A stretch of 29,397 nt of DNA from Candidatus Heimdallarchaeota archaeon. Its GTDB lineage: Archaea; Asgardarchaeota; Heimdallarchaeia; Hodarchaeales; Hodarchaeaceae. Position numbers and translations under genes: made by a program. This document shows, one piece after another, positions 284-13,073 of the stretch. The stretch spans positions 1 to 29,397 of the forward strand of contig DXJL01000039.1 in NCBI GenBank assembly GCA_019057635.1, written 5' to 3'. Within the stretch, counting starts at the first letter, position 1, and each line of letters begins with the position of its first letter. The notes beneath the pieces were generated by a model that made no database searches, was not told where the DNA came from, and was given only the letters and a program-made list of their open reading frames with translations.

Positions 284-532
284 TCATCCCCCACCTATTG
301 GAGGAAAAATAGCTATCTCATCATTTTCCTGTAAGAATTCATTAAGTGATTTAATTGTTGTATGATTTCTCATAATGATCTTTGCTTCTTCGGTAGTAAT
401 CTTTAACTGCTCTAATAATTGGTTAAAGGTTGTATTCGCTGCTATTGTCAGAGGGAAAGACTCACCAATTGCTAACCCTTCAGGGCCCCTATCTCGAAGA
501 GTAGCGAATAATTTTACAAAAATATGAACCAA
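284..532 (-). CDS. moaD: MoaD/ThiS/SAMP-family sulfur carrier protein (ubiquitin-like beta-grasp fold)
   Basis: N-terminal VKLFATLRD and C-terminal DEIAIFPPIGGG with a free diglycine. The likely start is TTG at 532, just after GGTGAG (ORF track start is 565). Confidence 0.85.
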   Translation of the reverse strand: MVHIFVKLFATLRDRGPEGLAIGESFPLTIAANTTFNQLLEQLKITTEEAKIIMRNHTTIKSLNEFLQENDEIAIFPPIGGG

Positions 533-536
533 ATAC

Positions 537-875
537 TCACCTGTTTGATAAGTGAAAATAGTCATAATCTTTTGGAGCAGATCGAGTTATGAACCCATGA
601 CCTTTCAAATGTTGTCCACCGCATAGAAGGTACATCCCTTCTGAAAAGATTGCTACACGCGAGTTTTCTTCAATTACTGGATTTTGATCTCTTTTAACTA
701 CTTTTCCATCAATAAAACAATCTCCACATTCCTCCTGAGAGAGTTTAAGATCCGCAAACAATTCTTGAAGAAGTAAACCATCGCGGTGCTTCAATTTAAT
801 TATCAAATCGTCTCCAAGTGAAGCATTTGGATCAAATTTCTTTTTTAAAAAACCATAGATATGAACATCAATCAT
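537..875 (-). CDS. MoaD/ThiS-like ubiquitin-fold protein with internal CGG and a 25-aa C-terminal extension
   Basis: Beta-grasp pattern VHIYGFLK...CFIDGKVV...IEENSRVAIF, ending SEGMYLLCGG-QHLKGHGFITRSAPKDYDYFHLSNR. Paralogous to 910..1203. Confidence 0.7.
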   Translation of the reverse strand: MIDVHIYGFLKKKFDPNASLGDDLIIKLKHRDGLLLQELFADLKLSQEECGDCFIDGKVVKRDQNPVIEENSRVAIFSEGMYLLCGGQHLKGHGFITRSAPKDYDYFHLSNR

Positions 876-909
876 AACTTGTCAATCCAAATTTTTAATG
901 GTCATTTGA

Positions 910-1203
910 TTAATCCTTCCATTTCTTAAGGTATAATCCACCATCGATCAAAAGCATTCCACGGGAAAATATCGCTACTCGCGCATTTTTTGGAACAAAA
1001 TCAGTATGGTTATTTACAATTGTATGATTAATAAAACATTCTCCATAATCCGATTTTGATAAATTTAACCTCTTTAGAAGCTGCTCAACAGATTCATTCA
1101 ATACGAATGGTAATTTTACAACAGTATCCTCAGATAATCTTGCTCCTGGATCGAAATTTGTTTTCAGTGGTCCAAATACGTGAATTTCCAAGCTATCATT
1201 CAT
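910..1203 (-). CDS. MoaD/ThiS-like ubiquitin-fold protein with internal DGG and an 8-aa C-terminal extension
   Basis: IHVFGPLK..FDP...ECFINHTIV...VPKNARVAIF, ending SRGMLLIDGG-LYLKKWKD. Paralogous to 537..875. Confidence 0.7.
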   Translation of the reverse strand: MNDSLEIHVFGPLKTNFDPGARLSEDTVVKLPFVLNESVEQLLKRLNLSKSDYGECFINHTIVNNHTDFVPKNARVAIFSRGMLLIDGGLYLKKWKD

Positions 1204-1403: not shown

Positions 1404-3455
1404 ATGGTCCTCGATTCAGTTAATCTTGTGAAACATAGAACTTATTGTTTTGTTATCCTCGTTTTAATTGCTCTGATTTTGGTAAATACAAACATTAAAA
1501 GTGATAAAACTTGGAATCGGAATTTACAGATTTCTCCCTATGAGAATGATATGGAATTATCTGTCTTCGAAGCCCACTCACGTTATAAAGTCCAAAGGAC
1601 CAATTACATGGATCACGATCCAATAACTATCATGGGGAACCTTGACTTTCTTGCACAAGCAACCTCGGAAGGATGGCCTGGAGTAGGAAGTAAAGCAAAT
1701 CCAATTATTATCAAGAATTTAGAAATAATAAGTTCAGGAGGCTTTGAGACTGCAATATCGATTTGGGATACAAACTTGTTTTTTCAGCTTACTAATTGCA
1801 TTTTAACTGAAGCATTTGAGATAATAAGTCTTCATAATGTTGAAAATGCAAATATTTCCCATAATGTGGTAAGAAATACTAATAGAGGGAATTTCCCTGA
1901 GCGTACTGGAATTGTACTATTTGGGGGGTCTTCTAATACTATTTTAAATAACACTGTGGATAATTGTGAGTGGGCAATAAGAGTTGAAGTTAATAGCAAG
2001 GATAATTTCATTTTTAATAATACGCTATATGACTGTAATTCAGGAATTTCATTGGATAGTGCCCATAATGTGACTATATCAAGAAATGTTGTTTATAATA
2101 ATGGTCCTGATGGTGGGATAAATCTTCGGGGCTCTACTAATTCCGTTATCAGTGATAATCAAATATTTGATAATGAGGGTGATGGTTTAATTCTCTTTGC
2201 TTCTAGATACAACCTAATACACAATAATACTGTTATTAATAATTCTGGTGCGATAGCACTTGTTGATATTTCCACTGATAATGAGGTTTCTGAAAATCTT
2301 CTGACTGGGAATGTAGGAGGACTTCAGGTTTGGGGGTCAGATAGAAACCTTCTAACTCATAATGAAATTGGTAATGGTCATCAAGATGGTCTTGTCATTG
2401 GTTCAGGTGGGGAAAATATCGTTTCGTTCAATATTATTTATAATAATTTTGAAGGAATTGGTATTGTTGAAAGGTCATTTAATAATCTAATTTACAATAA
2501 TACTATATTTAATAATCCTGCTGTTGGGATCTACCTAGCTGATGAATGTAACGATAATAGTATTACTGGAAATACCATCTACAACAATAGTGATGGGATA
2601 CGACTCTACATATCAAGTAGCAATTCAATACTTAATAATAGTTTTAATAATAACCGTGGATATGGGATGCTTTTACTAAGCCTATCTGATAACAATCTTA
2701 TTTCGTATAATGAAATATCAAACAACACCAACTATGGTATCCAAATAGAAGATTCAGATTTCAACGTCATTCGGAATAATGACTTCATCGGAAATGGGTT
2801 TGGTAATTCTGAAGGAAGTTCTCAAGCCTCAATTTTCTTGGCACAAAATGAGAAAAATAACAAATTTATATTTAATTTTTGGGATGATTGGGCTAGTTCG
2901 GATTTAAATGGTGATGGCATCGGAGATAACCCTTATACAATAGATGGAGGGTTCCAGGACAATTATCCACTAGTTTCACAAGATTTATCACTTGTTTCGG
3001 ATACTATTACAGAAATGGTATATATTTTTCCTCTGAGTGATGTGATCTTGAAGGATAGGGTGAAAATCGAATGGACACCTTCGTACGATGTATTTGAACA
3101 TGAGGTAATGTATACATTATACTATTCTGTTGATAATGGGGAAAATTGGATTCTACTCGTTGAAAATATTATTGAAAATTATTGGATGTGGGATACACGA
3201 GATGTTTCAGAGGATTCTTATTGTATTCTAAAAGTAGTAGCCAGATGTTCAGAAGGGATAGAGAGGGAGTTAATTATGGGGTCACCAGTTTTAATTGATA
3301 ACCATGGTCCTCCAGTAGATTTTTCTATGTTAATTGTAGTCTGTGCTATCATTTTGATTATTCCTGAGTTCTACTTGGGAAGGAGATTCAGTAAATATCT
3401 AACCAGAATGCGTTTAGAACCATCAATACATTCAGAAGGAGTCGAAAATCCATGA
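1404..3455 (+). CDS. Membrane-anchored cell-surface protein with right-handed parallel beta-helix (NosD/CASH-type) repeats
   Basis: N-terminal hydrophobic signal/TM; GWPGVGSKANPIII motif; many Asn-rich N.I.NN..GI repeats; NFWDDW...DLNGDGIGDNPY motif; Ig/Fn3-like IEW...YTLYYSVDNGENW...WDT domain; C-terminal TM followed by a basic tail. GGTGA lies upstream of the ATG. Confidence 0.85.
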   Translation: MVLDSVNLVKHRTYCFVILVLIALILVNTNIKSDKTWNRNLQISPYENDMELSVFEAHSRYKVQRTNYMDHDPITIMGNLDFLAQATSEGWPGVGSKANPIIIKNLEIISSGGFETAISIWDTNLFFQLTNCILTEAFEIISLHNVENANISHNVVRNTNRGNFPERTGIVLFGGSSNTILNNTVDNCEWAIRVEVNSKDNFIFNNTLYDCNSGISLDSAHNVTISRNVVYNNGPDGGINLRGSTNSVISDNQIFDNEGDGLILFASRYNLIHNNTVINNSGAIALVDISTDNEVSENLLTGNVGGLQVWGSDRNLLTHNEIGNGHQDGLVIGSGGENIVSFNIIYNNFEGIGIVERSFNNLIYNNTIFNNPAVGIYLADECNDNSITGNTIYNNSDGIRLYISSSNSILNNSFNNNRGYGMLLLSLSDNNLISYNEISNNTNYGIQIEDSDFNVIRNNDFIGNGFGNSEGSSQASIFLAQNEKNNKFIFNFWDDWASSDLNGDGIGDNPYTIDGGFQDNYPLVSQDLSLVSDTITEMVYIFPLSDVILKDRVKIEWTPSYDVFEHEVMYTLYYSVDNGENWILLVENIIENYWMWDTRDVSEDSYCILKVVARCSEGIERELIMGSPVLIDNHGPPVDFSMLIVVCAIILIIPEFYLGRRFSKYLTRMRLEPSIHSEGVENP

Positions 3456-3892
3456 TAGAATCAGAAACAAGTTCCCCTGACCGTATCTCAATTGATGAAT
3501 TCTCCCCACCTAATTTTAAGAATTGGGAGGCCCAGATCCGTGCAATGGTTCGAATAGCCTCATTATCATTTTTTATTCTATTCATCCTAAAGATATTCGA
3601 AGCAAATATACCAATATTTGCTGATATATCAGTTGGAGTAGTTGTTTTCATATTAGGAATTTTCATAGTAGGATTAGTAATAGGTTTCTTCCAGTTACGA
3701 TACATAAATGTCAGGCGAAATAAAATAACTAATTTTGGAGGAATAGTTGGATTTACAGGATTGTTCCTAACTGGAATTCCTTGCAGTTGTGAATTAGTTG
3801 TACAAGGCTTTTTTTCTTCGTCTCTTCTAGACATTTTATTAGTTTCTGGCCTTTTTCTAACTTTTTTTGGTTTTTTTGCTGAAGCTACTTAA
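3452..3892 (+). CDS. N-terminal 4-TM segment of a large membrane protein, in frame with 3923..8287 and separated from it by a single TAA
   Basis: ATGA overlap with the upstream gene, upstream GGAG, four hydrophobic helices. The frame continues without a further stop after TAA 3890-3892. Confidence 0.7.
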   Translation: MIESETSSPDRISIDEFSPPNFKNWEAQIRAMVRIASLSFFILFILKIFEANIPIFADISVGVVVFILGIFIVGLVIGFFQLRYINVRRNKITNFGGIVGFTGLFLTGIPCSCELVVQGFFSSSLLDILLVSGLFLTFFGFFAEAT

Positions 3893-3922: not shown

Positions 3923-6900
3923 GTGAACTTAACATCTATATTTCGTTACACTGTGACGATTATTGGAGCTTTCCTCTTCAATTTGGGTATACTTGTCGTT
4001 TTGGCCTCGAGAAATGAGTGGATAATTACAATATGGCCTCAAGGAATTGCTGGAGAATTCGGAATTCTTTTAGGGGTAGTAATTGTGTGGGGTACGTGGT
4101 TCAATCACATTAACCAGTTAATCTGGAACAATCGAATTTTAATCTTGAGAACGATTGAACTAAGTATCAGTCAAGCTCTAGTGTTCTTAGTAGTAGCACT
4201 TCCAATATTAACTATTATCTTCGAGCAGCGTCTTACTCTGGGTGTTTTCCTTATTCTTGTTATTCTTGGTTTTATGGGCATTAGTATATTATATGCAGAT
4301 TTATATTTCTTTGGAGTTCCAGAAAGACTCCGTGATTTTGGCCAAAGGTACCTGCCAGTTGTTCAAGTAATAGTATTGATAAGCGCTGCTTTTCTAATTG
4401 GGATTGGATTATTTTACCCTGACTCTTACTTCCAGGTTTTGAGCAATCAATTAATGATGAATTTGCTGATTGGAAGTTTTCGGGGATATTATGTTGGGAT
4501 TGGTCTTCTCTTAATCTATCGAATGTGGTTTAGAATCATAAATAATTTCTATACTCAATCGGTAAGATTCCTCAGCCAATATTATCGTGAAATTACCACT
4601 GCTGGAGCAATAATTCCCCTTCTCTTAGGAGTGATTGGATTTCCAATAATCAAAAGAAATTCTTTTGATAGTTATCTAATTCCTACAGTCGCTTTAATAG
4701 CAGGGTATTTAATTGGAGTAGGTGTGTGGTATTTCCCAAAACATCAGTACTCCAGAGGGGTCAATACTGTGTGGAGCAGTGTTCTCATATTTTGGAGTTT
4801 AGTTCTGGTCCTTTTCTCCCTAGGTCGCCTACCTGAGATCACTAGTTATCCTTCAAATCTAGGTGTTTTGATTCCTGGAACCTTTTTTGTTTTTTATTTG
4901 GGAGTGGATTCATACCTATGGAGAAAAGAACTTTATCATGTTCTTCACCAGATATGGTTTTTTATCAGAACCTCTTACAGGGAACTCGTCACAGCTATTG
5001 GTATTGGGTTCATGGTAGCTGGTTCTGTATTTTTTAAGTTCTTTGAATTCTGGGAAGTAAATAGTCCATTTCATCTCATACCTGCCGTCTCGTTTTTATT
5101 TGGGTATGCTCTGATAATGATTATCTGGCGCTTTCCGAAACATCCAGTTTATTTCCGAGGAATCACCACCACTCTGAGCGCGAGTGTATTTCTCTGGGGT
5201 GTAGTTATATGGAACTGGAGCTCTAAAGTGTGGCCGCCAATAGTTACGATCGTTTATTTGGGAACTGCCAGTGTGATATCAGCTTTCTTATGGCAAAAAG
5301 AAGTTTTCCTGCTTTTCCGTCGAAGTGCTGAGACGATTAAACGGTTCATAGAAACCTATTATCGCGAATTAATTTCAGTATTTGGGTTGAGTTCGATGTT
5401 TATTGGCTCCTTATGGTGGAATGATATATTTGAGGTCGCTGCTCCTCTCTTTTACGTTGGTTATTTGTTAACTGTGGGAATTTGGCATTTTCCCACACGT
5501 CATAGATCTTTCCGAGGGATTACAACTACGTTGAGTGTGGTCGTTTTCTTTTCTGGCTTATTTCAGGGGAATTGGAACATTGATTTCTCACGTTCCGAAC
5601 TTGTTTGGCCATCTATAATCTTACTTCTCTATACAGGAACTGCCAGTGTGTTCTTAGCTTTCTTATGGCAAAAAGAAGTTTTCCGGCTTTTCCGTCGAAC
5701 TGCTAAAACGATTAAACAGTTTATCGAAACCTATTACCGTGAATTGGTGACGGTAGCGGGCCTTGCTTTAATGATCTTGGGATTAGCGAATTGGAAGGGT
5801 ATTACCACAGGATCTTCCCTTCTCTTTTTCTGTGGTTATCTCTTAACAGTAGCAATTTGGCATCTTCCCACGCGTCATAGACATTTCCGAGGAATTGCTA
5901 CAATATTAAGTATAGTTATTTTTCTGTGGGGATTAATTCCAGGAAACTGGAGGATAGATTTCTCTAGCTCTGAGTCAGTTTGGCCATCAGCAATTTCAAT
6001 CCTCTATATGGGAACTGCTAGTGTAATACCCATTTATCTCTGGAGAATGGAGTTGTACAACCTTCTTCATAGAACTGCTAAAAAGATCAAACAGTTTATC
6101 GAAACCTATTACCGTAAATTAGTGACTACAGCGGGTCTCGGGTTAATGATCTTGGGATTAGCGACTTGGAAGGGTATTACCACAGGATCTTCCCTTCTCT
6201 TTTTCTGTGGTTATCTCTTAACAGTAACAATTTGGCATCTTCCCACGCGTCATAGACATTTCCGAGGGATAGCTACCACAATGAGCATTTTAGTCTTTTT
6301 CTGGGGAATCTTTCAGCTTTCTCTGATTGTAGAACCTACTTCCAACTTTTTGGAAATTCCTTTCCTTATTACATACTCCTTTATTGGGATTGGAAGTGCA
6401 TTACCCAGTTTCTTGTGGCGAGTGGAACTTTGGCACTTAATGAAACAAGTAGCAAAAACAATTCGTCAAGCCGTCACGAGAACTCTACACATGGCATATG
6501 ATTTGATGAAAACCGTCTGGAATGTTATTACACACGCATTTTGGGCAATTATTAGATCTGGTCATAGAGTATTACTGTCCTTGTATAATAATTCGGTTCG
6601 GTTAATACAATATGTGAAATTGAATTTTTGGACTCTTGTACGATACCTTTTCTCACTCATTGGGGTTTTAATGATATCCATTGGGATATTTTTACTGACT
6701 GTTGAAGGATCTCAAGGATTAGATGGTCTTTTGTGGATGTTTGCTGGTTTCCTCTCCATATGCTTGGCCTGGTGGGAAAATTCAATTCAAATCCTACGGG
6801 CTATTGGTAACTCGTTATGGGCCTTCCTGATTTCCATAAGAGATTTTATCATTCATATGAGAAGATTTCTCTGGGCCAAAATTGTAGGGTTTATCGTGTT

Positions 6901-8287
6901 TGTAAGAATATACTTAGAACCTATCATAAGGATCTCCACAACTTTATTAGGTGGTTTATTTGTTTTTCTCGGTATAGCAGGGTTTTCGTTTGAATTAATT
7001 GCTATTAACATCCCATCAGAGCTTTTAATGGTAATAGGTTTATTTATTCTAGTTTTGACTTGGCTATCTCAGATTTATAATTATATTAAGAATACTGCTC
7101 ATTCAGTGAGGAAGTTATTTGTTGGTTCTCTTCATTTTCTCTGGGAAACTGGTGTTGGGGTAAAAAATGCAATCATAAAGGCTTATCTAGCAGTAAAAGT
7201 ATTTTTCCAAACGTATCATGGTTTGCTCCTTCGTTACACTGTCTTTTTCCTAGGACTCTTCTTTATGGCCTTGGCTTTTCAGCCTTGGGTATCAGAAATA
7301 CTAGAATTCTTGCCCTTTATCCTTTTCATGGTAGGTTATTCTTCATCCTTCTTTGCCTGGTACCGTCATGCAAATTTCAGAAGAAACGGAACAATATTGA
7401 GTATTATTATAACTCTCGTTGGACTATATCAAGTTGGGTACACTACTGATCCTATCTCCTGGATAGTAGTAGTAGTTGGAATAGCGGCAAATGGCATCCT
7501 TTGGTGGACTGAGCTTAAAAGTTACATAAGACATCGTTGGAACGCGTTCATCGGTTTTATGATAAGAACTGTCAATGAAGTTAAACAGGCAATTAAAGAT
7601 TTTCTTCGCTATGTGCGGAGTCTATTTTGGAATATAACAGGGTCGGTAGGAATTATTCTAGACTTATGTGGTATTTACCTACTTTTTTTCCCATCAATGA
7701 GAATGTGGGGCTTCTTTTTGTTTGTAGGAGGTTCTCTACTCGTTATTGGCGCTTGGAATCAAGAGATCTTGAATTTCCTAAAACAATGTTCTGAAGTGTT
7801 ATCAAAAGCAGTTACTGTAATATTAAAATTTGCTTCCCGTATATGGCAACAATTAAAACACTTTACTCGCTCAATTTTTGATTCAACATTTATACTCCTA
7901 TTCGTGACCTTCGGAGTTCTGGCATTCTGTTATGGGTTAATTTTAGTTATTTCAGGAATATTTTTTGACGGTTCAGGTGATTGGACAGTAGGCATACGTA
8001 ATTTCCCTATAGTAGGTGAAATTATTTGGCTTATTGCATCATTCGCTCAAGGAAGACCATTTGATCTTGATGGGGTTCCAAATTTACTCGGAGCATGGGA
8101 AGTTTTCCCATCAATTGTTTTAATATTATTAGGCGGAGCCATAATATTCTTCGGGATACTTATTACGTTTATTAGTTATATTAAAAGGGAAGATATCAAA
8201 GTAAATAAAGTAAAACGACGATTTAGCAGCTCTACTTCAACAGGACATAAAATAGACTATGAAGACAAGGAGGGCAAAAAATTATGA
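3923..8287 (+). CDS. Giant polytopic membrane protein with ~125-aa repeats (4 TM plus an amphipathic helix); probably the main part of a single gene 3452..8287
   Basis: 1454-codon hydrophobic ORF with recurring YYREL.T..G / W.(F/L)P..H..FRG / LW..E motifs. The GTG start at 3923 has no visible RBS. Confidence 0.85.
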   Translation: MNLTSIFRYTVTIIGAFLFNLGILVVLASRNEWIITIWPQGIAGEFGILLGVVIVWGTWFNHINQLIWNNRILILRTIELSISQALVFLVVALPILTIIFEQRLTLGVFLILVILGFMGISILYADLYFFGVPERLRDFGQRYLPVVQVIVLISAAFLIGIGLFYPDSYFQVLSNQLMMNLLIGSFRGYYVGIGLLLIYRMWFRIINNFYTQSVRFLSQYYREITTAGAIIPLLLGVIGFPIIKRNSFDSYLIPTVALIAGYLIGVGVWYFPKHQYSRGVNTVWSSVLIFWSLVLVLFSLGRLPEITSYPSNLGVLIPGTFFVFYLGVDSYLWRKELYHVLHQIWFFIRTSYRELVTAIGIGFMVAGSVFFKFFEFWEVNSPFHLIPAVSFLFGYALIMIIWRFPKHPVYFRGITTTLSASVFLWGVVIWNWSSKVWPPIVTIVYLGTASVISAFLWQKEVFLLFRRSAETIKRFIETYYRELISVFGLSSMFIGSLWWNDIFEVAAPLFYVGYLLTVGIWHFPTRHRSFRGITTTLSVVVFFSGLFQGNWNIDFSRSELVWPSIILLLYTGTASVFLAFLWQKEVFRLFRRTAKTIKQFIETYYRELVTVAGLALMILGLANWKGITTGSSLLFFCGYLLTVAIWHLPTRHRHFRGIATILSIVIFLWGLIPGNWRIDFSSSESVWPSAISILYMGTASVIPIYLWRMELYNLLHRTAKKIKQFIETYYRKLVTTAGLGLMILGLATWKGITTGSSLLFFCGYLLTVTIWHLPTRHRHFRGIATTMSILVFFWGIFQLSLIVEPTSNFLEIPFLITYSFIGIGSALPSFLWRVELWHLMKQVAKTIRQAVTRTLHMAYDLMKTVWNVITHAFWAIIRSGHRVLLSLYNNSVRLIQYVKLNFWTLVRYLFSLIGVLMISIGIFLLTVEGSQGLDGLLWMFAGFLSICLAWWENSIQILRAIGNSLWAFLISIRDFIIHMRRFLWAKIVGFIVFVRIYLEPIIRISTTLLGGLFVFLGIAGFSFELIAINIPSELLMVIGLFILVLTWLSQIYNYIKNTAHSVRKLFVGSLHFLWETGVGVKNAIIKAYLAVKVFFQTYHGLLLRYTVFFLGLFFMALAFQPWVSEILEFLPFILFMVGYSSSFFAWYRHANFRRNGTILSIIITLVGLYQVGYTTDPISWIVVVVGIAANGILWWTELKSYIRHRWNAFIGFMIRTVNEVKQAIKDFLRYVRSLFWNITGSVGIILDLCGIYLLFFPSMRMWGFFLFVGGSLLVIGAWNQEILNFLKQCSEVLSKAVTVILKFASRIWQQLKHFTRSIFDSTFILLFVTFGVLAFCYGLILVISGIFFDGSGDWTVGIRNFPIVGEIIWLIASFAQGRPFDLDGVPNLLGAWEVFPSIVLILLGGAIIFFGILITFISYIKREDIKVNKVKRRFSSSTSTGHKIDYEDKEGKKL
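4580..6470 (+). repeat. Intragenic tandem repeat, about five units; the best-conserved units have an exact 375-bp period
   Basis: GGAACTGC(C/T)AGTGT at 5261, 5636 and 6011; AAACAGTTTATCGAAACCTATTACCGT at 5714 and 6089; 5768-5892 and 6143-6267 are identical except for 2 nt. Confidence 0.9.
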
Positions 8288-9978
8288 AAGATATTATGTT
8301 ACATAATAAGGAATTGTTGAGAATAGGAACAGAATTATCTCAATCCGATAAAGAAGTCCAAGAATGGCATCAATGGTTTCTTCGACAGACAGAATTATAC
8401 AAAAATTCGAAAATAAGCTCAAAAGTATATCAGAACATACTGGAGCGGTATCGGATCTTCTTAGAGAAGAAAACGAAAAAGAAAATTCCTTCTTCTGAAA
8501 AATCTATCTTGACAGAAGAAATCAAAGATGGTGAGTCACCAGAAGGTGATTTCAAGATGGTATCATCATCCTCCGTTGATTGTCCTTCTTGTGGGAAATC
8601 GAATTCCCCCCTTGCACAGTTTTGCATCTATTGTGGTGGATCGATCGCTAAAAAATCAAAAGCGTCAGAACAAAAAATCATGGATTCGCGATCTGATCCA
8701 GCAGCTGAAGAAAAAGAGATCAGAGAATCAGAATTAAAATCTGCTGATATGGAGGATTCTGAAAAGAAAGTTCTGACAGAAGGATCGCAGATTCAAGAGT
8801 CTGATGCTTCGGGATTAGGTAAAGATTCATCTCCCAAAACACCCAAAAAATTACAAATCTTACCGATGAAGCCAAAACAAAGAGTTTCGAAAACACCTGT
8901 TGAGGATGATCGAATTCGTGTACCCCAGGTAGAAAGGAAATCTCGAGAGTATTCAGGACGAGAATCGCAAATTAAATTATCAAGAATCATCTCAAAAAGA
9001 ACTATGATTATTGGAGTGGGTTCTTTTACTTCTGCACTAATGATTATTATAATTTTATCATTAGGAGAAGAACGAATAGGGGTCGATAGGATATCTGTTG
9101 CATTAATTCTCCTCGCTTTTCTATCTACAGTTTTTAGCTTGGTAATTGATGTACTAAGGGAAAGGAATTTTGCAGAATGGAGTGCTCTTGGCGCTATTAT
9201 AAGCTATTTCGGGATTTTCCTAATTTTCATTCCTTTACTTGTTTATGTGATTTTTCCAACAGGAATAGAAGAAGATTTTCTAGTTTTTGTGCCTGAAGTT
9301 GTTGGGATAGTCCTTCTGGTCATAGGAGTGACTTTACGGTGGACAGAATATGATGAAAGGTTAGTGAATTTAATTACTATCACCATAGGTTATTGGAAAA
9401 ATTATCAAAAAAGGGAAGCGATTAAAACCTTTCTCATAGCAATCGGTACATTCTGTGTGGGGATATTTAAAGCTATAGTTGGTGGTTTTCGTCGTCTTCC
9501 AAGTAGATTTAAAGCTTTTTTTGGAATAGTAAAACAATTTTTTATAGATTACGGAATAGCCACCATTACCCAACTAATAACTGCATTTACACGCATGTCC
9601 AAAGCTTTGTGGAATCATACCCACTGGATTGGATTACTAGCTATTCTCGTATATCTGTGGCTTACAGGCTTTTCTACGTACCAGAATATTGAGTTATTAA
9701 TTATAATGAGTTTCTTTTTCATTTTAGGAATTCTTTATTCTAATTCTGAACGGATGAACAAAGTTGTTAGTAGTACAAGGGTCACTATCCTGAAAGGAGT
9801 GATTAGTGCGCATTCGATGTTGACAGGAACTAGGATTAAGACAGAAGAAGCAATTTTTTGTTCTCGTTGCTTAAGAGGGGTGCATGAAATTGAGTATGAG
9901 GAGCTCAAGCATGTTGAGCAGAAACAAGTCCCAGAATGTCCTTACTGTGGGCACGAAAATTGGGTAACAGTCAATTAG
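8284..9978 (+). CDS. Membrane protein with an N-terminal zinc ribbon, charged low-complexity linker, TM bundle and C-terminal zinc finger
   Basis: CPSCGKSNSPLAQFCIYCG near 8581, a S/K/E-rich linker, about 6 TM segments plus amphipathic helices, and FCSRC...ECPYCG at the C-terminus. ATGA overlap and GGAGGG RBS. Confidence 0.85.
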   Translation: MKDIMLHNKELLRIGTELSQSDKEVQEWHQWFLRQTELYKNSKISSKVYQNILERYRIFLEKKTKKKIPSSEKSILTEEIKDGESPEGDFKMVSSSSVDCPSCGKSNSPLAQFCIYCGGSIAKKSKASEQKIMDSRSDPAAEEKEIRESELKSADMEDSEKKVLTEGSQIQESDASGLGKDSSPKTPKKLQILPMKPKQRVSKTPVEDDRIRVPQVERKSREYSGRESQIKLSRIISKRTMIIGVGSFTSALMIIIILSLGEERIGVDRISVALILLAFLSTVFSLVIDVLRERNFAEWSALGAIISYFGIFLIFIPLLVYVIFPTGIEEDFLVFVPEVVGIVLLVIGVTLRWTEYDERLVNLITITIGYWKNYQKREAIKTFLIAIGTFCVGIFKAIVGGFRRLPSRFKAFFGIVKQFFIDYGIATITQLITAFTRMSKALWNHTHWIGLLAILVYLWLTGFSTYQNIELLIIMSFFFILGILYSNSERMNKVVSSTRVTILKGVISAHSMLTGTRIKTEEAIFCSRCLRGVHEIEYEELKHVEQKQVPECPYCGHENWVTVN

Positions 9979-10223: not shown

Positions 10224-10463
10224 TTGCAGAAGGTAAAAGTCATAGTCTGGACAAACAAATTTGTTAATGCAACTCGTGAGTACCGTCGACAGATGTGGGA
10301 TGAGATCTATCTCAGAATGATTCGTCAAGCTGACGAGTTCATTCGTAATACGGTTAGAACTGATTATTTGCAGGAACTTGTTACAATTAAGCGTCATTGT
10401 CCCGAATGTGGAGGAGAAATTCTTCTTGAAAAAAAATCAGATAAAGTAGCATACTTATTTTAA
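10224..10463 (+). pseudogene. Possible gene remnant or small hypothetical protein with a lone CPECGG knuckle
   Basis: 79-codon ORF with a TTG start directly after in-frame stops and no RBS. It has only one CxxC pair before the stop. Short protein-like open stretches occur upstream in other frames. Confidence 0.3.
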
Positions 10464-10517
10464 ATGGAGAATGGGGAATATGTCCTATCGCAAATAAGAT
10501 GAGAATGGGGTCTTTAC

Positions 10518-11615
10518 TTGATCTTTACACTTGATTTAATCATAACTGTGACAATTGCTGTTTTGTGTGTATCAGCCGAAATCATAATTGCTGTTAGTCT
10601 GTCAAGACGCTGGATAAAATATAATGCAAAGACTTTGACTATATTTCTCATGGCATTGGCCTCACTATTTCTCGCTGATAGCTCAGGCTTAATAGCAATG
10701 TTTATTACAGACGAATCATTGCTGATCCCAGTCTATAAGTTTTCATTAATAGGTTCAATGATATCTGTGTGTTTCCTCCTGTATTTTTTTGAGGCTTTTG
10801 AGTTTGATACGATTTTCACATGGAAGCAAATGGTTCATACATTAATTTTAGGAGGAACAGTGGTTGCCATCTTATTAGGGAACTTCCAAACTATCTTTCA
10901 TTCAGATTTAGAAATATTAACTGTCACTTTAGATCCTCTAAGTGAATTTCTCACCTTTTTCTTACCGGGATTGGGCAGTTTGCTTATTATATTAAGCTTA
11001 TGGAAAGGATATAACGATGCATGGGCTGTACAAAAGAAACAACTACAATATATGATAATAGGGATAATTATCGCTTATATGCTTCCATTTATTCTCAAAC
11101 CTGTTGCCTTATCATTATCTTCAATGGTTTTTACCATTTTCTTACGTGCTGATGTCGCTATTGGCTTCATCCTGTATTTTATTTCATTTGGAAGTCAAGA
11201 AAATTTTGCAGTATTTAATCGACATCAGGCTGAGCGAATTTTAGTAATTCATGAAACTGGTATCCCACTATTCTCCTATGACTTCAAAGCAGATGATGAG
11301 TCGCTTGATGAAGCGTTATTCGCAGGGGGGATTGTTGCGATCACATCATTGATGCAAGAGGCGACACAGTCAACTGCGGATATATCAGAGGTGAAATTAG
11401 AAGACAACAGACTTCTAATGGAAAGAAAAAATCAAGTTTTAGCTCTGATTCTCACACCTCAAACAACTTTTTACCTAAGAGGGGCGCTTAAACGATTCGC
11501 AACAGGATTCATTAGAGAATTTTCCCAATCTCTCTCATCAATTAACTATATCGAGTCAAATACCTATGCAAAAGGTGGAAAACGCCTAGTTTATGAAAGT
11601 TTTGGTGTGGAATAG
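10518..11615 (+). CDS. 7-TM membrane protein fused to a C-terminal longin/roadblock-like domain
   Basis: Seven hydrophobic segments in aa ~5-225, with QKKQL before TM6 as in HisKA_7TM-type sensors. These are followed by ILVIHETGIPLFSYDF...DEALFAGGIVAITSLMQE...ISEVKLEDNRLLME...LRGALKRFATGF, the beta-beta-alpha-beta-beta-beta-alpha pattern typical of Asgard longin-like domains. Confidence 0.75.
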   Translation: MIFTLDLIITVTIAVLCVSAEIIIAVSLSRRWIKYNAKTLTIFLMALASLFLADSSGLIAMFITDESLLIPVYKFSLIGSMISVCFLLYFFEAFEFDTIFTWKQMVHTLILGGTVVAILLGNFQTIFHSDLEILTVTLDPLSEFLTFFLPGLGSLLIILSLWKGYNDAWAVQKKQLQYMIIGIIIAYMLPFILKPVALSLSSMVFTIFLRADVAIGFILYFISFGSQENFAVFNRHQAERILVIHETGIPLFSYDFKADDESLDEALFAGGIVAITSLMQEATQSTADISEVKLEDNRLLMERKNQVLALILTPQTTFYLRGALKRFATGFIREFSQSLSSINYIESNTYAKGGKRLVYESFGVE

Positions 11616-11720
11616 TTCGACTGTTTTCTAACCTTGAATATCAACCTTAATAACCCTTTTTTTAGAGTTTATTTTATGAACTCTGTTGATCATGTCAGAT
11701 TTATGGTGGTGAACTAATTA

Positions 11721-12521: not shown

Positions 12522-13073
12522 TTAGGTCTTTAGAATACCTTGTTTCTTTAGCACTTCTTTCGTAATCACCGAAAAAGCTTCATGAATGTTTTGATTCGCA
12601 TAAGCGGACGTCTCTAAATACTTCACAGGTTGAAAATCAGGGATAACTGTATCTTCTAAAACACCATAGTCAATTTGTATCATATCATCGAGATCGGATT
12701 TATTTCCAAGGAGAACAGTAGGAATCCTATTTTTTCCTAATCTTTCGTCAATTTGACTCTTCCAGTCATATAATTCATCTAAGGAGTCTGAACGTGTTAA
12801 GTCAAATACAAGTAATGCACCATTTGCCTTTCGAAAAAACACATCTCTCAGTGTTTGGAATCGTTCTTGTCCAGCAACGTCAAATAAAATTAAATTCACT
12901 AAAAATCCATTAACTTCGATTTTCCGATTTGAAGGTTCCATACCTATGGTAAGTAAGTAATTAAATTCAAATTTATTTTCAACAAATCTGCGCACGATGC
13001 TTGTTTTCCCTACAGCTCCAGTACCGCATACTATGATTTTCATATGATATTTGGCTTTCTCTGTGTAGTCCAT
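12522..13073 (-). CDS. Rab-like small GTPase (Ras superfamily)
   Basis: G1 GTGAVGKT, G2 YLLTIG, G3 DVAGQE, G4 NKSD, G5 ETSA, plus Rab-like RFQTLR/FFRKA/LVFDLT segments. Confidence 0.95.
   Translation of the reverse strand: MDYTEKAKYHMKIIVCGTGAVGKTSIVRRFVENKFEFNYLLTIGMEPSNRKIEVNGFLVNLILFDVAGQERFQTLRDVFFRKANGALLVFDLTRSDSLDELYDWKSQIDERLGKNRIPTVLLGNKSDLDDMIQIDYGVLEDTVIPDFQPVKYLETSAYANQNIHEAFSVITKEVLKKQGILKT

Follow-up and report, generated by a model that had tools for sequence, protein, structure and literature searches.

Introduction

A MoaD-family gene strictly adjacent to the gene for an aldehyde:ferredoxin oxidoreductase (AOR) is found in scattered archaea and bacteria, an arrangement that the relevant passages of Iyer, Burroughs & Aravind 2006 (PMC1779556) and Makarova & Koonin 2010 (PMC2948915) interpret as molybdopterin supply for the tungsten cofactor. 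In these passages the AOR-linked MoaD is a single protein that terminates in a Gly-Gly pair (GG), often with MoeB, MoaE or MoaA encoded nearby, and archaeal MoaD-type proteins are described as able to serve both as sulfur carriers and as protein modifiers (PMC2948915). The aorABCDE operon of Aromatoleum aromaticum contains two MoaD-like genes, aorD and aorE, whose products are absent from the purified enzyme in the account of the preparation in PMC6365974. In the expression experiments described in PMC9295118, placing aorD and aorE on the expression plasmid raised the specific activity of the AOR from 4.5 to 16 U/mg, and 85 U/mg was reached when extra tungstate was also supplied. Here we analyse a window of 29,397 bp, which is an entire contig (G000:C1, ~35% G+C) of an Asgard archaeon, and which carries at its left end three tandem genes of the ubiquitin (beta-grasp) fold, designated A, B and C, next to the start of an AOR gene.

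As in the Aromatoleum operon, as far as these accounts describe it, two small MoaD-like genes are found next to a tungsten AOR, with the difference that the Aromatoleum enzyme has three subunits. Gene C fits the published description of an AOR-linked MoaD as given in the passages cited above. The Asgard cassette differs from that description by a second beta-grasp gene whose product does not terminate in GG, and by MoaE, MoaC and MoeA being undetectable in 20 of the 22 genomes of this genus. The characteristic tails of A and B (DGGLYLKKWKD and CGGQHLKGHGF, respectively) are unmentioned in the parts of the above papers that describe AorD and AorE. AOR-linked MoaD-like factors were thus already known, and the present analysis adds an unusually conserved tail motif and an unexplained cofactor-supply context. 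The interpretation we favour, with the balance leaning modestly towards it, is that A and B remain uncleaved, assist the MoaD-like carrier as accessory or adaptor proteins reserved for one AOR subfamily, and would act in the maturation of this AOR.

Three ubiquitin-fold genes next to an AOR gene

The features discussed are the following.

910..1203, minus strand: gene A, 97 aa; capped beta-grasp protein of the short-tail GG type; GG codons at 937..942; tail …MLLIDGGLYLKKWKD
537..875, minus strand: gene B, 112 aa; capped beta-grasp protein of the B type; core of residues 1-80 plus a conserved tail
591..635, minus strand: tail motif of B, residues 81-95, MYLLCGGQHLKGHGF; GG codons at 615..620; most conserved segment of the protein
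284..532, minus strand: gene C (D type), 82 aa from the TTG at 532; MoaD/ThiS-family carrier type with a free terminal GG
284..565, minus strand: gene C with the alternative start, ATG at 565, giving 93 aa
1..47, minus strand: 5' end of the AOR gene, …MPQILRINMSDM…; start at 38 (ATG) or 47 (GTG); truncated by the end of the contig

The original prediction, made from the letters of this stretch, had described three tandem ubiquitin-fold paralogues, with a canonical MoaD at 284..532, and the C-termini it quoted agree exactly with the translated open reading frames (ORFs). Protein A ends in ...RVAIFSRGMLLIDGGLYLKKWKD, with GG at residues 88-89 followed by 8 residues, B ends in ...RVAIFSEGMYLLCGGQHLKGHGFITRSAPKDYDYFHLSNR, with GG at residues 86-87 followed by 25 residues, and C ends in IAIFPPIGGG. 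The spacing it had noted is also as stated, with 9-10 residues from F77 to GG in B versus 5-6 from the corresponding Phe to GG in C. The length of C counted from the TTG codon agrees with that of its relatives, which have 79-87 aa and start just before VKLFATLR.

A and B share 39% identity in BLASTP (E 1e-22), while C is more distant (E 4e-7 against A), and the paralogy of the three proteins is, by sequence comparison, well above chance level. C matches the Pfam family ThiS (PF02597) with E 1.1e-9 and 39.1 bits against a cut-off of 22.5, and its matches to the NCBIfam families moaD_arch, moaD and SAMP1 are below the respective cut-offs. The weak match to SAMP1 (E 1.9e-5) relates C to the SAMP1/MoaD protein of Haloferax volcanii; SAMP1-like conjugation needs a free GG, which A and B do not have. 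For A and B, no Pfam family is matched at E <= 1, and no NCBIfam family either. The AlphaFold2 model of B, a check proposed with the original prediction, shows a confident beta-grasp for residues 1-80 (blocks with a predicted local distance difference test score, pLDDT, of 88-95), followed from about residue 81 by a tail of low confidence (pLDDT 50-60). The top Foldseek matches of B in the PDB are RnfH, TtuB, ThiS and MoaD, all of them weak (best E 3e-3), and a sequence profile search of the PDB with the A/B alignment gave a single chance-level match (E 0.32).

Among 1.84 billion representative proteins, only 139 relatives were retrieved with a profile built from A and B. Gene A is present only in the closest related genomes, with 10 close homologues besides A itself, and the 64 homologues of B are spread over Asgard lineages; Hodarchaeales or Heimdallarchaeota are the source names that homologues carry. 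Many relatives do not have the GG, and continue after the last strand with …FPxxMxLLYKWYFxxEDE (Y type), while other GG-less relatives stop at …LLYC or …LLYV.

Read on the minus strand, the first ~40-47 bases of the window code for the N-terminus of the AOR, which was missing from the original prediction. Window positions 1..~600 align with the end of another contig of the same assembly (G000:C208), on which the AOR reading frame carries on into a protein of 595 aa (G000:C208 8307..10094) with the domains AFOR_N (E 1e-53) and AFOR_C (E 3e-71). The 595-aa protein aligns along its full length with the solved tungsten AORs 9mqx (E 3.5e-82) and 1aor (E 2e-75), and for this reason the AOR of the cassette looks like a genuine enzyme. 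The two overlapping segments (window 1..~600 and G000:C208 9940..10558, locus L026) are similar but non-identical, cover the C gene and the AOR start, and differ by an 87-bp gap in the spacer between C and AOR; the overlap probably represents a strain variant or a collapsed repeat that broke the assembly.

A conserved cassette around one AOR subfamily

In the following, X type denotes the capped beta-grasp proteins (B type, Y type and A), and D type the MoaD-like proteins of ~80 aa that end in GG. The gene order B – MoaD-like – AOR was found again in eight related genomes, and in some of these one or two genes intervene between the MoaD-like gene and AOR. Species genomes were also scanned with the Y-type alignment, which gave 138 relatives, of which 80 loci were kept that are Y-type-anchored by construction; nearly all are from Asgard archaea, with a few from Bathyarchaeia and Thermoplasmatota. 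In 81 of 85 X-anchored loci from these three groups an AOR gene is located within 4.5 kb, the identity of the AOR cluster having been checked by Pfam. The commonest order at the 85 loci is AOR > X (B or Y type) > D, and in most of them the D gene directly follows the X gene. Within the phylum, the A/B profile matched in 91 of the 201 genomes sampled.

The X-linked AORs form a single clade with a Shimodaira–Hasegawa-like approximate likelihood ratio (SH-aLRT) support of 100, separate from six other AOR paralogues in the genome of the window; the tree was a quick one with long branches and a midpoint root, and its sample comprised 5 B-linked AORs, each of them from this genus, together with 20 of the 53 Y-linked ones. 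X and D are also found naturally fused (P0056, P0092, P0094 and P0117). The cassette linkage, the AOR clade and the natural fusions together indicate that X and D are a pair, tied to one AOR subfamily.

The full tail is kept between the two domains in the fusion P0056. The AlphaFold2 model of this B-D fusion contains two confident domains joined by a tail with pLDDT 52-54, and its predicted template modelling score (pTM 0.49) leaves the arrangement of the domains unreadable. A prediction of the B + C complex gave an interface score (ipSAE) of 0.01 in both runs, but the controls failed to fold, and the result counts neither for nor against an interaction.

Conservation of the tail

To describe the tail we used 90 unique B-type sequences, selected by a regular expression that spans residues 86-92, so that only residues 81-85 and 93-95 are an unbiased measure of conservation. 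The mean column entropy of residues 81-95 is 0.29 bits, against 1.91 bits in the core and 2.00 bits in residues 96-112. In the unbiased part, M81 is present in 89 of the 90 sequences, L83 in all, C85 in 84 (with Asp in the other 6), H93 and G94 in all and F/Y95 in 89; G86, G87, Q88, H89, K91 and G92 are each found in 90/90, and the consensus of residues 81-95 is MxLLCGGQHLKGHGF. Outside this segment, H5 is kept in 83/90 sequences, as is an aromatic pair, DY[YFW], near the B-type C-terminus (Y106 in 82/90). The A-type sequences behave similarly, all 11 of them ending in …LIDGGLY[LI]KKW[KN][DH].

Since the tail is the best-conserved part of the A/B proteins, it cannot be regarded as a disposable propeptide. 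In the AlphaFold2 models, both of B alone and of the fusion P0056, a short helix at MxLL immediately follows the last strand and the rest of the tail is flexible. A tail that is conserved and yet unstructured points to a docking motif, or to a ligand site that would form on a partner.

Proposed role and the molybdopterin pathway

The three genes are part of a conserved Asgard cassette around one subfamily of tungsten/molybdenum-pterin AORs. C is the MoaD-like protein of the cassette, and its free GG is a possible target for adenylation by one of the E1-like enzymes of the genome. We propose that A and B remain uncleaved, and that their C-terminus, predicted to consist of the short MxLL helix and a flexible conserved motif (CGGQHLKGHGF…DY[YFW] in B, DGGLYLKKWKD in A), would provide the element that docks to a partner or binds a ligand. 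They may act jointly with the MoaD-like carrier in maturing the neighbouring AOR, by cofactor sulfur chemistry, delivery or insertion, a role that would be analogous to that of the putative MoaD-like maturation factors AorD and AorE in the Aromatoleum AOR operon.

In the genome of the window, which is 91.6% complete, there are nine AOR-family matches and no match to MoaE, MoaC, MoeA_N or the C-terminal domain of MoaA (the last searched in this genome only). AOR-family genes are present in all 22 genomes of the genus (G000-G021), with 1-14 matches each, while MoaE, MoaC and MoeA_N are found within the genus only in G013 and G014, in neither of which an X-type match was found. Among the 20 genomes in which these genes were not found are a closed single-contig genome of 4.9 Mb (96% complete) and one that is 99% complete; in draft genomes, a lack of matches falls short of proof of absence. 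MoaE is present in 87 of the 201 genomes sampled across the phylum, which makes its absence here lineage-specific. Among the 201, it occurs in 29 of the 85 genomes with a strong match to the A/B profile (E < 1e-9) versus 58 of the 116 without one, a weak and phylogenetically confounded trend that we do not use as evidence.

Several observations weigh against the maturation role proposed above. With MoaC, MoaE and MoeA undetected in 20/22 genomes of the genus, the textbook MoaD-MoaE role cannot explain C, and a role in "cofactor maturation" stays vague given the missing pathway. The spacer between C and the AOR start is ~236 bp in the window, and in some members of the genus (as at locus L030) two genes separate D from AOR; co-transcription of the cassette is at most conjectural. 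There are lone GG-type paralogues away from any AOR, with variable neighbours, and the X family is therefore not exclusively AOR-bound. The Asgard cassette may be called an archaeal counterpart of the aor operon in outline, AorD and AorE being compared by their description in the cited parts of the literature only. The GG is (almost) invariant inside the A/B clade, so a clade-specific cut after GG by an unlinked protease is conceivable. Finally, neither A nor B matches Ub-Mut7C (PF14451), a family without any match in their own genome; A and B being below every Pfam threshold, their family placement rests on profile searches.

As the pathway was not detected, the D and X pair could have a function in salvage or insertion. 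In a stronger form of the proposal, which we consider rather unlikely, a MoaE-independent system of D and A/B proteins would supply one AOR subfamily with its pterin cofactor, with the CGGQHLKGHGF tail as the working element. Tungstopterin or a precursor acquired from outside could be salvaged, re-sulfurated or inserted, and the tail would bind a ligand or metal, or plug into the apo-enzyme. If true, the ubiquitin fold would be put to a new use here, and the cofactor would be supplied by a new route.

Alternative explanations for the capped proteins

X and/or D could instead be stable small subunits of this AOR subfamily, that is, a structural or an electron-transfer-independent accessory chain. 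In favour of this, the linkage to one AOR clade is very tight (the 81 of 85 loci), and a conserved flexible tail could become ordered on a large partner. However, the PDB titles of the solved AORs that align with the enzyme mention no such chain (titles only were compared), AorD and AorE are absent from the Aromatoleum enzyme as purified in the cited account (PMC6365974), and D retains the free GG that is typical of activated carriers. We regard a subunit role as unlikely.

A small metal- or anion-binding module is a further candidate for the B type, in which Cys85, His89, His93 and perhaps His5 would hold a metal or tungstate for AOR or its cofactor. Such a site is conceivable because C85, H89, K91 and H93 are near-invariant in the B type, the Cys and His having the spacing C-x3-H-x3-H, and the neighbouring AOR is itself a metal enzyme. 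The original prediction had written the motif as CGG.H..H; the actual sequence is CGGQHLKGH, in which the two His are separated by three residues. The near-invariant C85, H89 and H93 are, however, absent from the A type (DGGLYLKKWKD) and the Y type (LLYKWYF…), which belong to the same family and occupy the same position in the cassette. The cysteines of "ECGDC", which had also been put forward as ligands, are poorly kept (C50 in 31/90 and C53 in 67/90 sequences). The motif contains three glycines, which speaks against a preformed site; no ordered site is seen in the models, and no metal-binding family is matched in Pfam or NCBIfam. A metal site in the B type is, on this evidence, quite improbable.

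The idea put first in the original prediction treats A and B as precursor proteins: a JAMM/JAB-type or other protease would cut after GG and release a ubiquitin-like modifier or sulfur carrier, which an E1 would then adenylate. The GG is found in 90/90 B-type and in all 11 A-type sequences, and the tail is predicted to be flexible and exposed (pLDDT 50-60). The genome does contain the E1 and JAMM genes that such a pathway would need, and for which a search had been proposed, with 5 ThiF-family and 5 JAB loci, several of which adjoin one another and none of which lies in the window. Precursor-type carriers are well established in bacteria and eukaryotes: QbsE is trimmed after GG, and the tails of such carriers are short and unconserved. 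Like A and B, the PdtH/QbsE-type carriers and the eukaryotic ubiquitin and ubiquitin-like precursors combine a beta-grasp with residues after GG, and JAB-linked precursor-type ThiS/MoaD-like carriers are described for the bacterial PdtH/PdtG operon type in the corresponding section of PMC1779556.

The tails of A and B do not fit this pattern. An alignment had been proposed to set an invariant GG against a variable tail, but in the 90 B-type sequences the following QHLKGHG is as invariant as the GG, and the residues after GG are the best conserved of the protein, opposite to known disposable tails. Where canonical MoaD-like proteins have their terminal GG, A/B have "GM" or "NM" in the broad alignment; their own GG is located five residues beyond this canonical carrier terminus, where the Y types have Y-K. 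The Y-type sisters, in the same position of the orthologous AOR cassette, have MxLLYKWYF and no GG, and the GG position reads GA, GV or IS in six natural variants (P0084, P0086, P0090, P0095, L174 and L181). The expected conservation of GG is therefore seen within the A/B clade and is lost beyond it, and the GG is, judging from these alignments, dispensable in the wider family. The fusion P0056 keeps the complete tail between its domains. In the PdtH/QbsE-type systems covered by PMC1779556, a JAB peptidase and an E1 are encoded in the same operon, whereas the X-anchored loci are without either: BLASTP with the 5 E1 and 5 JAB queries found no homologue at E <= 1e-4 among 483 neighbour ORFs from 85 loci. 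We therefore consider precursor processing of A and B decidedly improbable. The other possibility named in the original prediction, that they act as uncleaved partners, is the better fit by tail conservation and by the GG-less sisters.

Relation to Ub-Mut7C

The closest curated family is Ub-Mut7C (PF14451), which is matched by 38 of the 53 members of the broad alignment, and which shares with A and B the beta-grasp fold and the lack of a terminal GG. The A/B profile matches a Y-type/Ub-Mut7C-like profile in hhalign with 98.6% probability (E 1e-15), the match stopping at LLC|LLY, ahead of the GG. By the curated test A and B are non-members, and they are best described, from their sequences, as divergent relatives of this family. 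Ub-Mut7C is N-terminal to a Mut7-C RNase, whereas A and B occur by themselves or joined to MoaD-like domains, and are linked to AOR; no Mut7-C/PIN domain or RNase is present among the top recurrent neighbour clusters of the 85 loci. An RNA- or nucleic-acid-binding regulatory role of the X type in cassette expression, as the relevant passage of Iyer et al. (PMC1779556) suggests in the form of RNA binding for the Mut7-C-fused domain, is very improbable here, in spite of the many PF14451 matches, given the missing Mut7-C/PIN neighbours, the fusion to MoaD-like domains instead of nucleases, and A and B falling below the PF14451 threshold.

An hhalign match between the A/B alignment and the D-type alignment was rejected as an artefact, as the matching columns were supplied by the fusion row P0056. 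P0092, P0094 and others are GC-rich relatives, possibly of bacterial origin; a tblastn search of plasmids with P0094 gave one weak D-like match. Two long repetitive proteins, P0122 (1377 aa) and P0153 (420 aa), match the A/B profile only through seven short tail-like stretches, which are …HLKGHG…/GHGY repeats and may reflect chance or low complexity.

Variant proteins and neighbouring genes

Other arrangements of the two domains were also observed. Proteins of 165-179 aa (P0108, P0110, P0120, P0131, P0145 and P0146; L061 6289..6828; L067 6371..6907) consist of an X-type domain and a second beta-grasp without a terminal GG, ending for example in …KIKYL. Some D-type proteins (L032 8596..8844, L033 9480..9737, L034 8658..8903, L066 7278..7541 and L146-L148) carry 1-6 variable residues after GG, with endings such as GGF, GGS, GGT, GGNSS, GGDSS, GGVGTYT and GGLFLVQ. 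Judged by sequence, these D-type proteins look more like trimmed precursors than A and B do. In the genome of the window, a ThiS/MoaD-family gene is found near an AOR paralogue without an X-type gene at two further places, G000:C101 (91..354, with AOR at 2147..3274) and G000:C214 (9361..9621, with AOR at 10463..11671).

The lone GG-type paralogues (L035 8638..8949, L031 8740..9054, L179 6091..6399, L169-L178 and L180) have tails that include LIDGGMHLKYHPQRR, LIDGGQYIKGHGCIEHDIEVDRY and LIDGGLYIKLLN, and their neighbours include genes for a methyltransferase, an FTR1 permease and a Met-tRNA ligase. A divergent BtpA gene is located beside the lone paralogue in 3/3 loci of this genus, and those of L035 and L179 are upstream of a PP-loop ATPase.

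Divergent from gene A, the window contains a block of four genes, which adjoins the cassette also in G002 and G005. These encode a NosD/right-handed beta-helix protein with a C-terminal membrane anchor (1404..3455), a small membrane protein (3452..3892), a multi-pass membrane protein of 1454 aa with internal repeats and no Pfam match (3923..8287), and a zinc-ribbon protein (8284..9978). Further on, a Ras-family small GTPase gene is present at 12522..13073 (E 2e-41), and genes of this family recur near the Y-type cassettes of other Asgard genomes.

Implications

In the literature searched, which did not extend to supplements, we found no description of the X-type family or of its tail motif, and the role of the second, non-canonical AOR-linked protein is not worked out there. 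In Asgard archaea this second protein constitutes a distinct and widespread capped beta-grasp family, locked to one AOR clade, with a tail motif that outdoes its fold in conservation. The tail is a concrete target for learning how tungsten enzymes are matured, which is relevant to the recombinant production of AORs. An internal Gly-Gly in an Asgard ubiquitin-fold protein need not signal a ubiquitin-like precursor. The presence of many AORs in genomes without a detectable molybdopterin pathway is relevant, in addition, to how far these archaea depend metabolically on partners.

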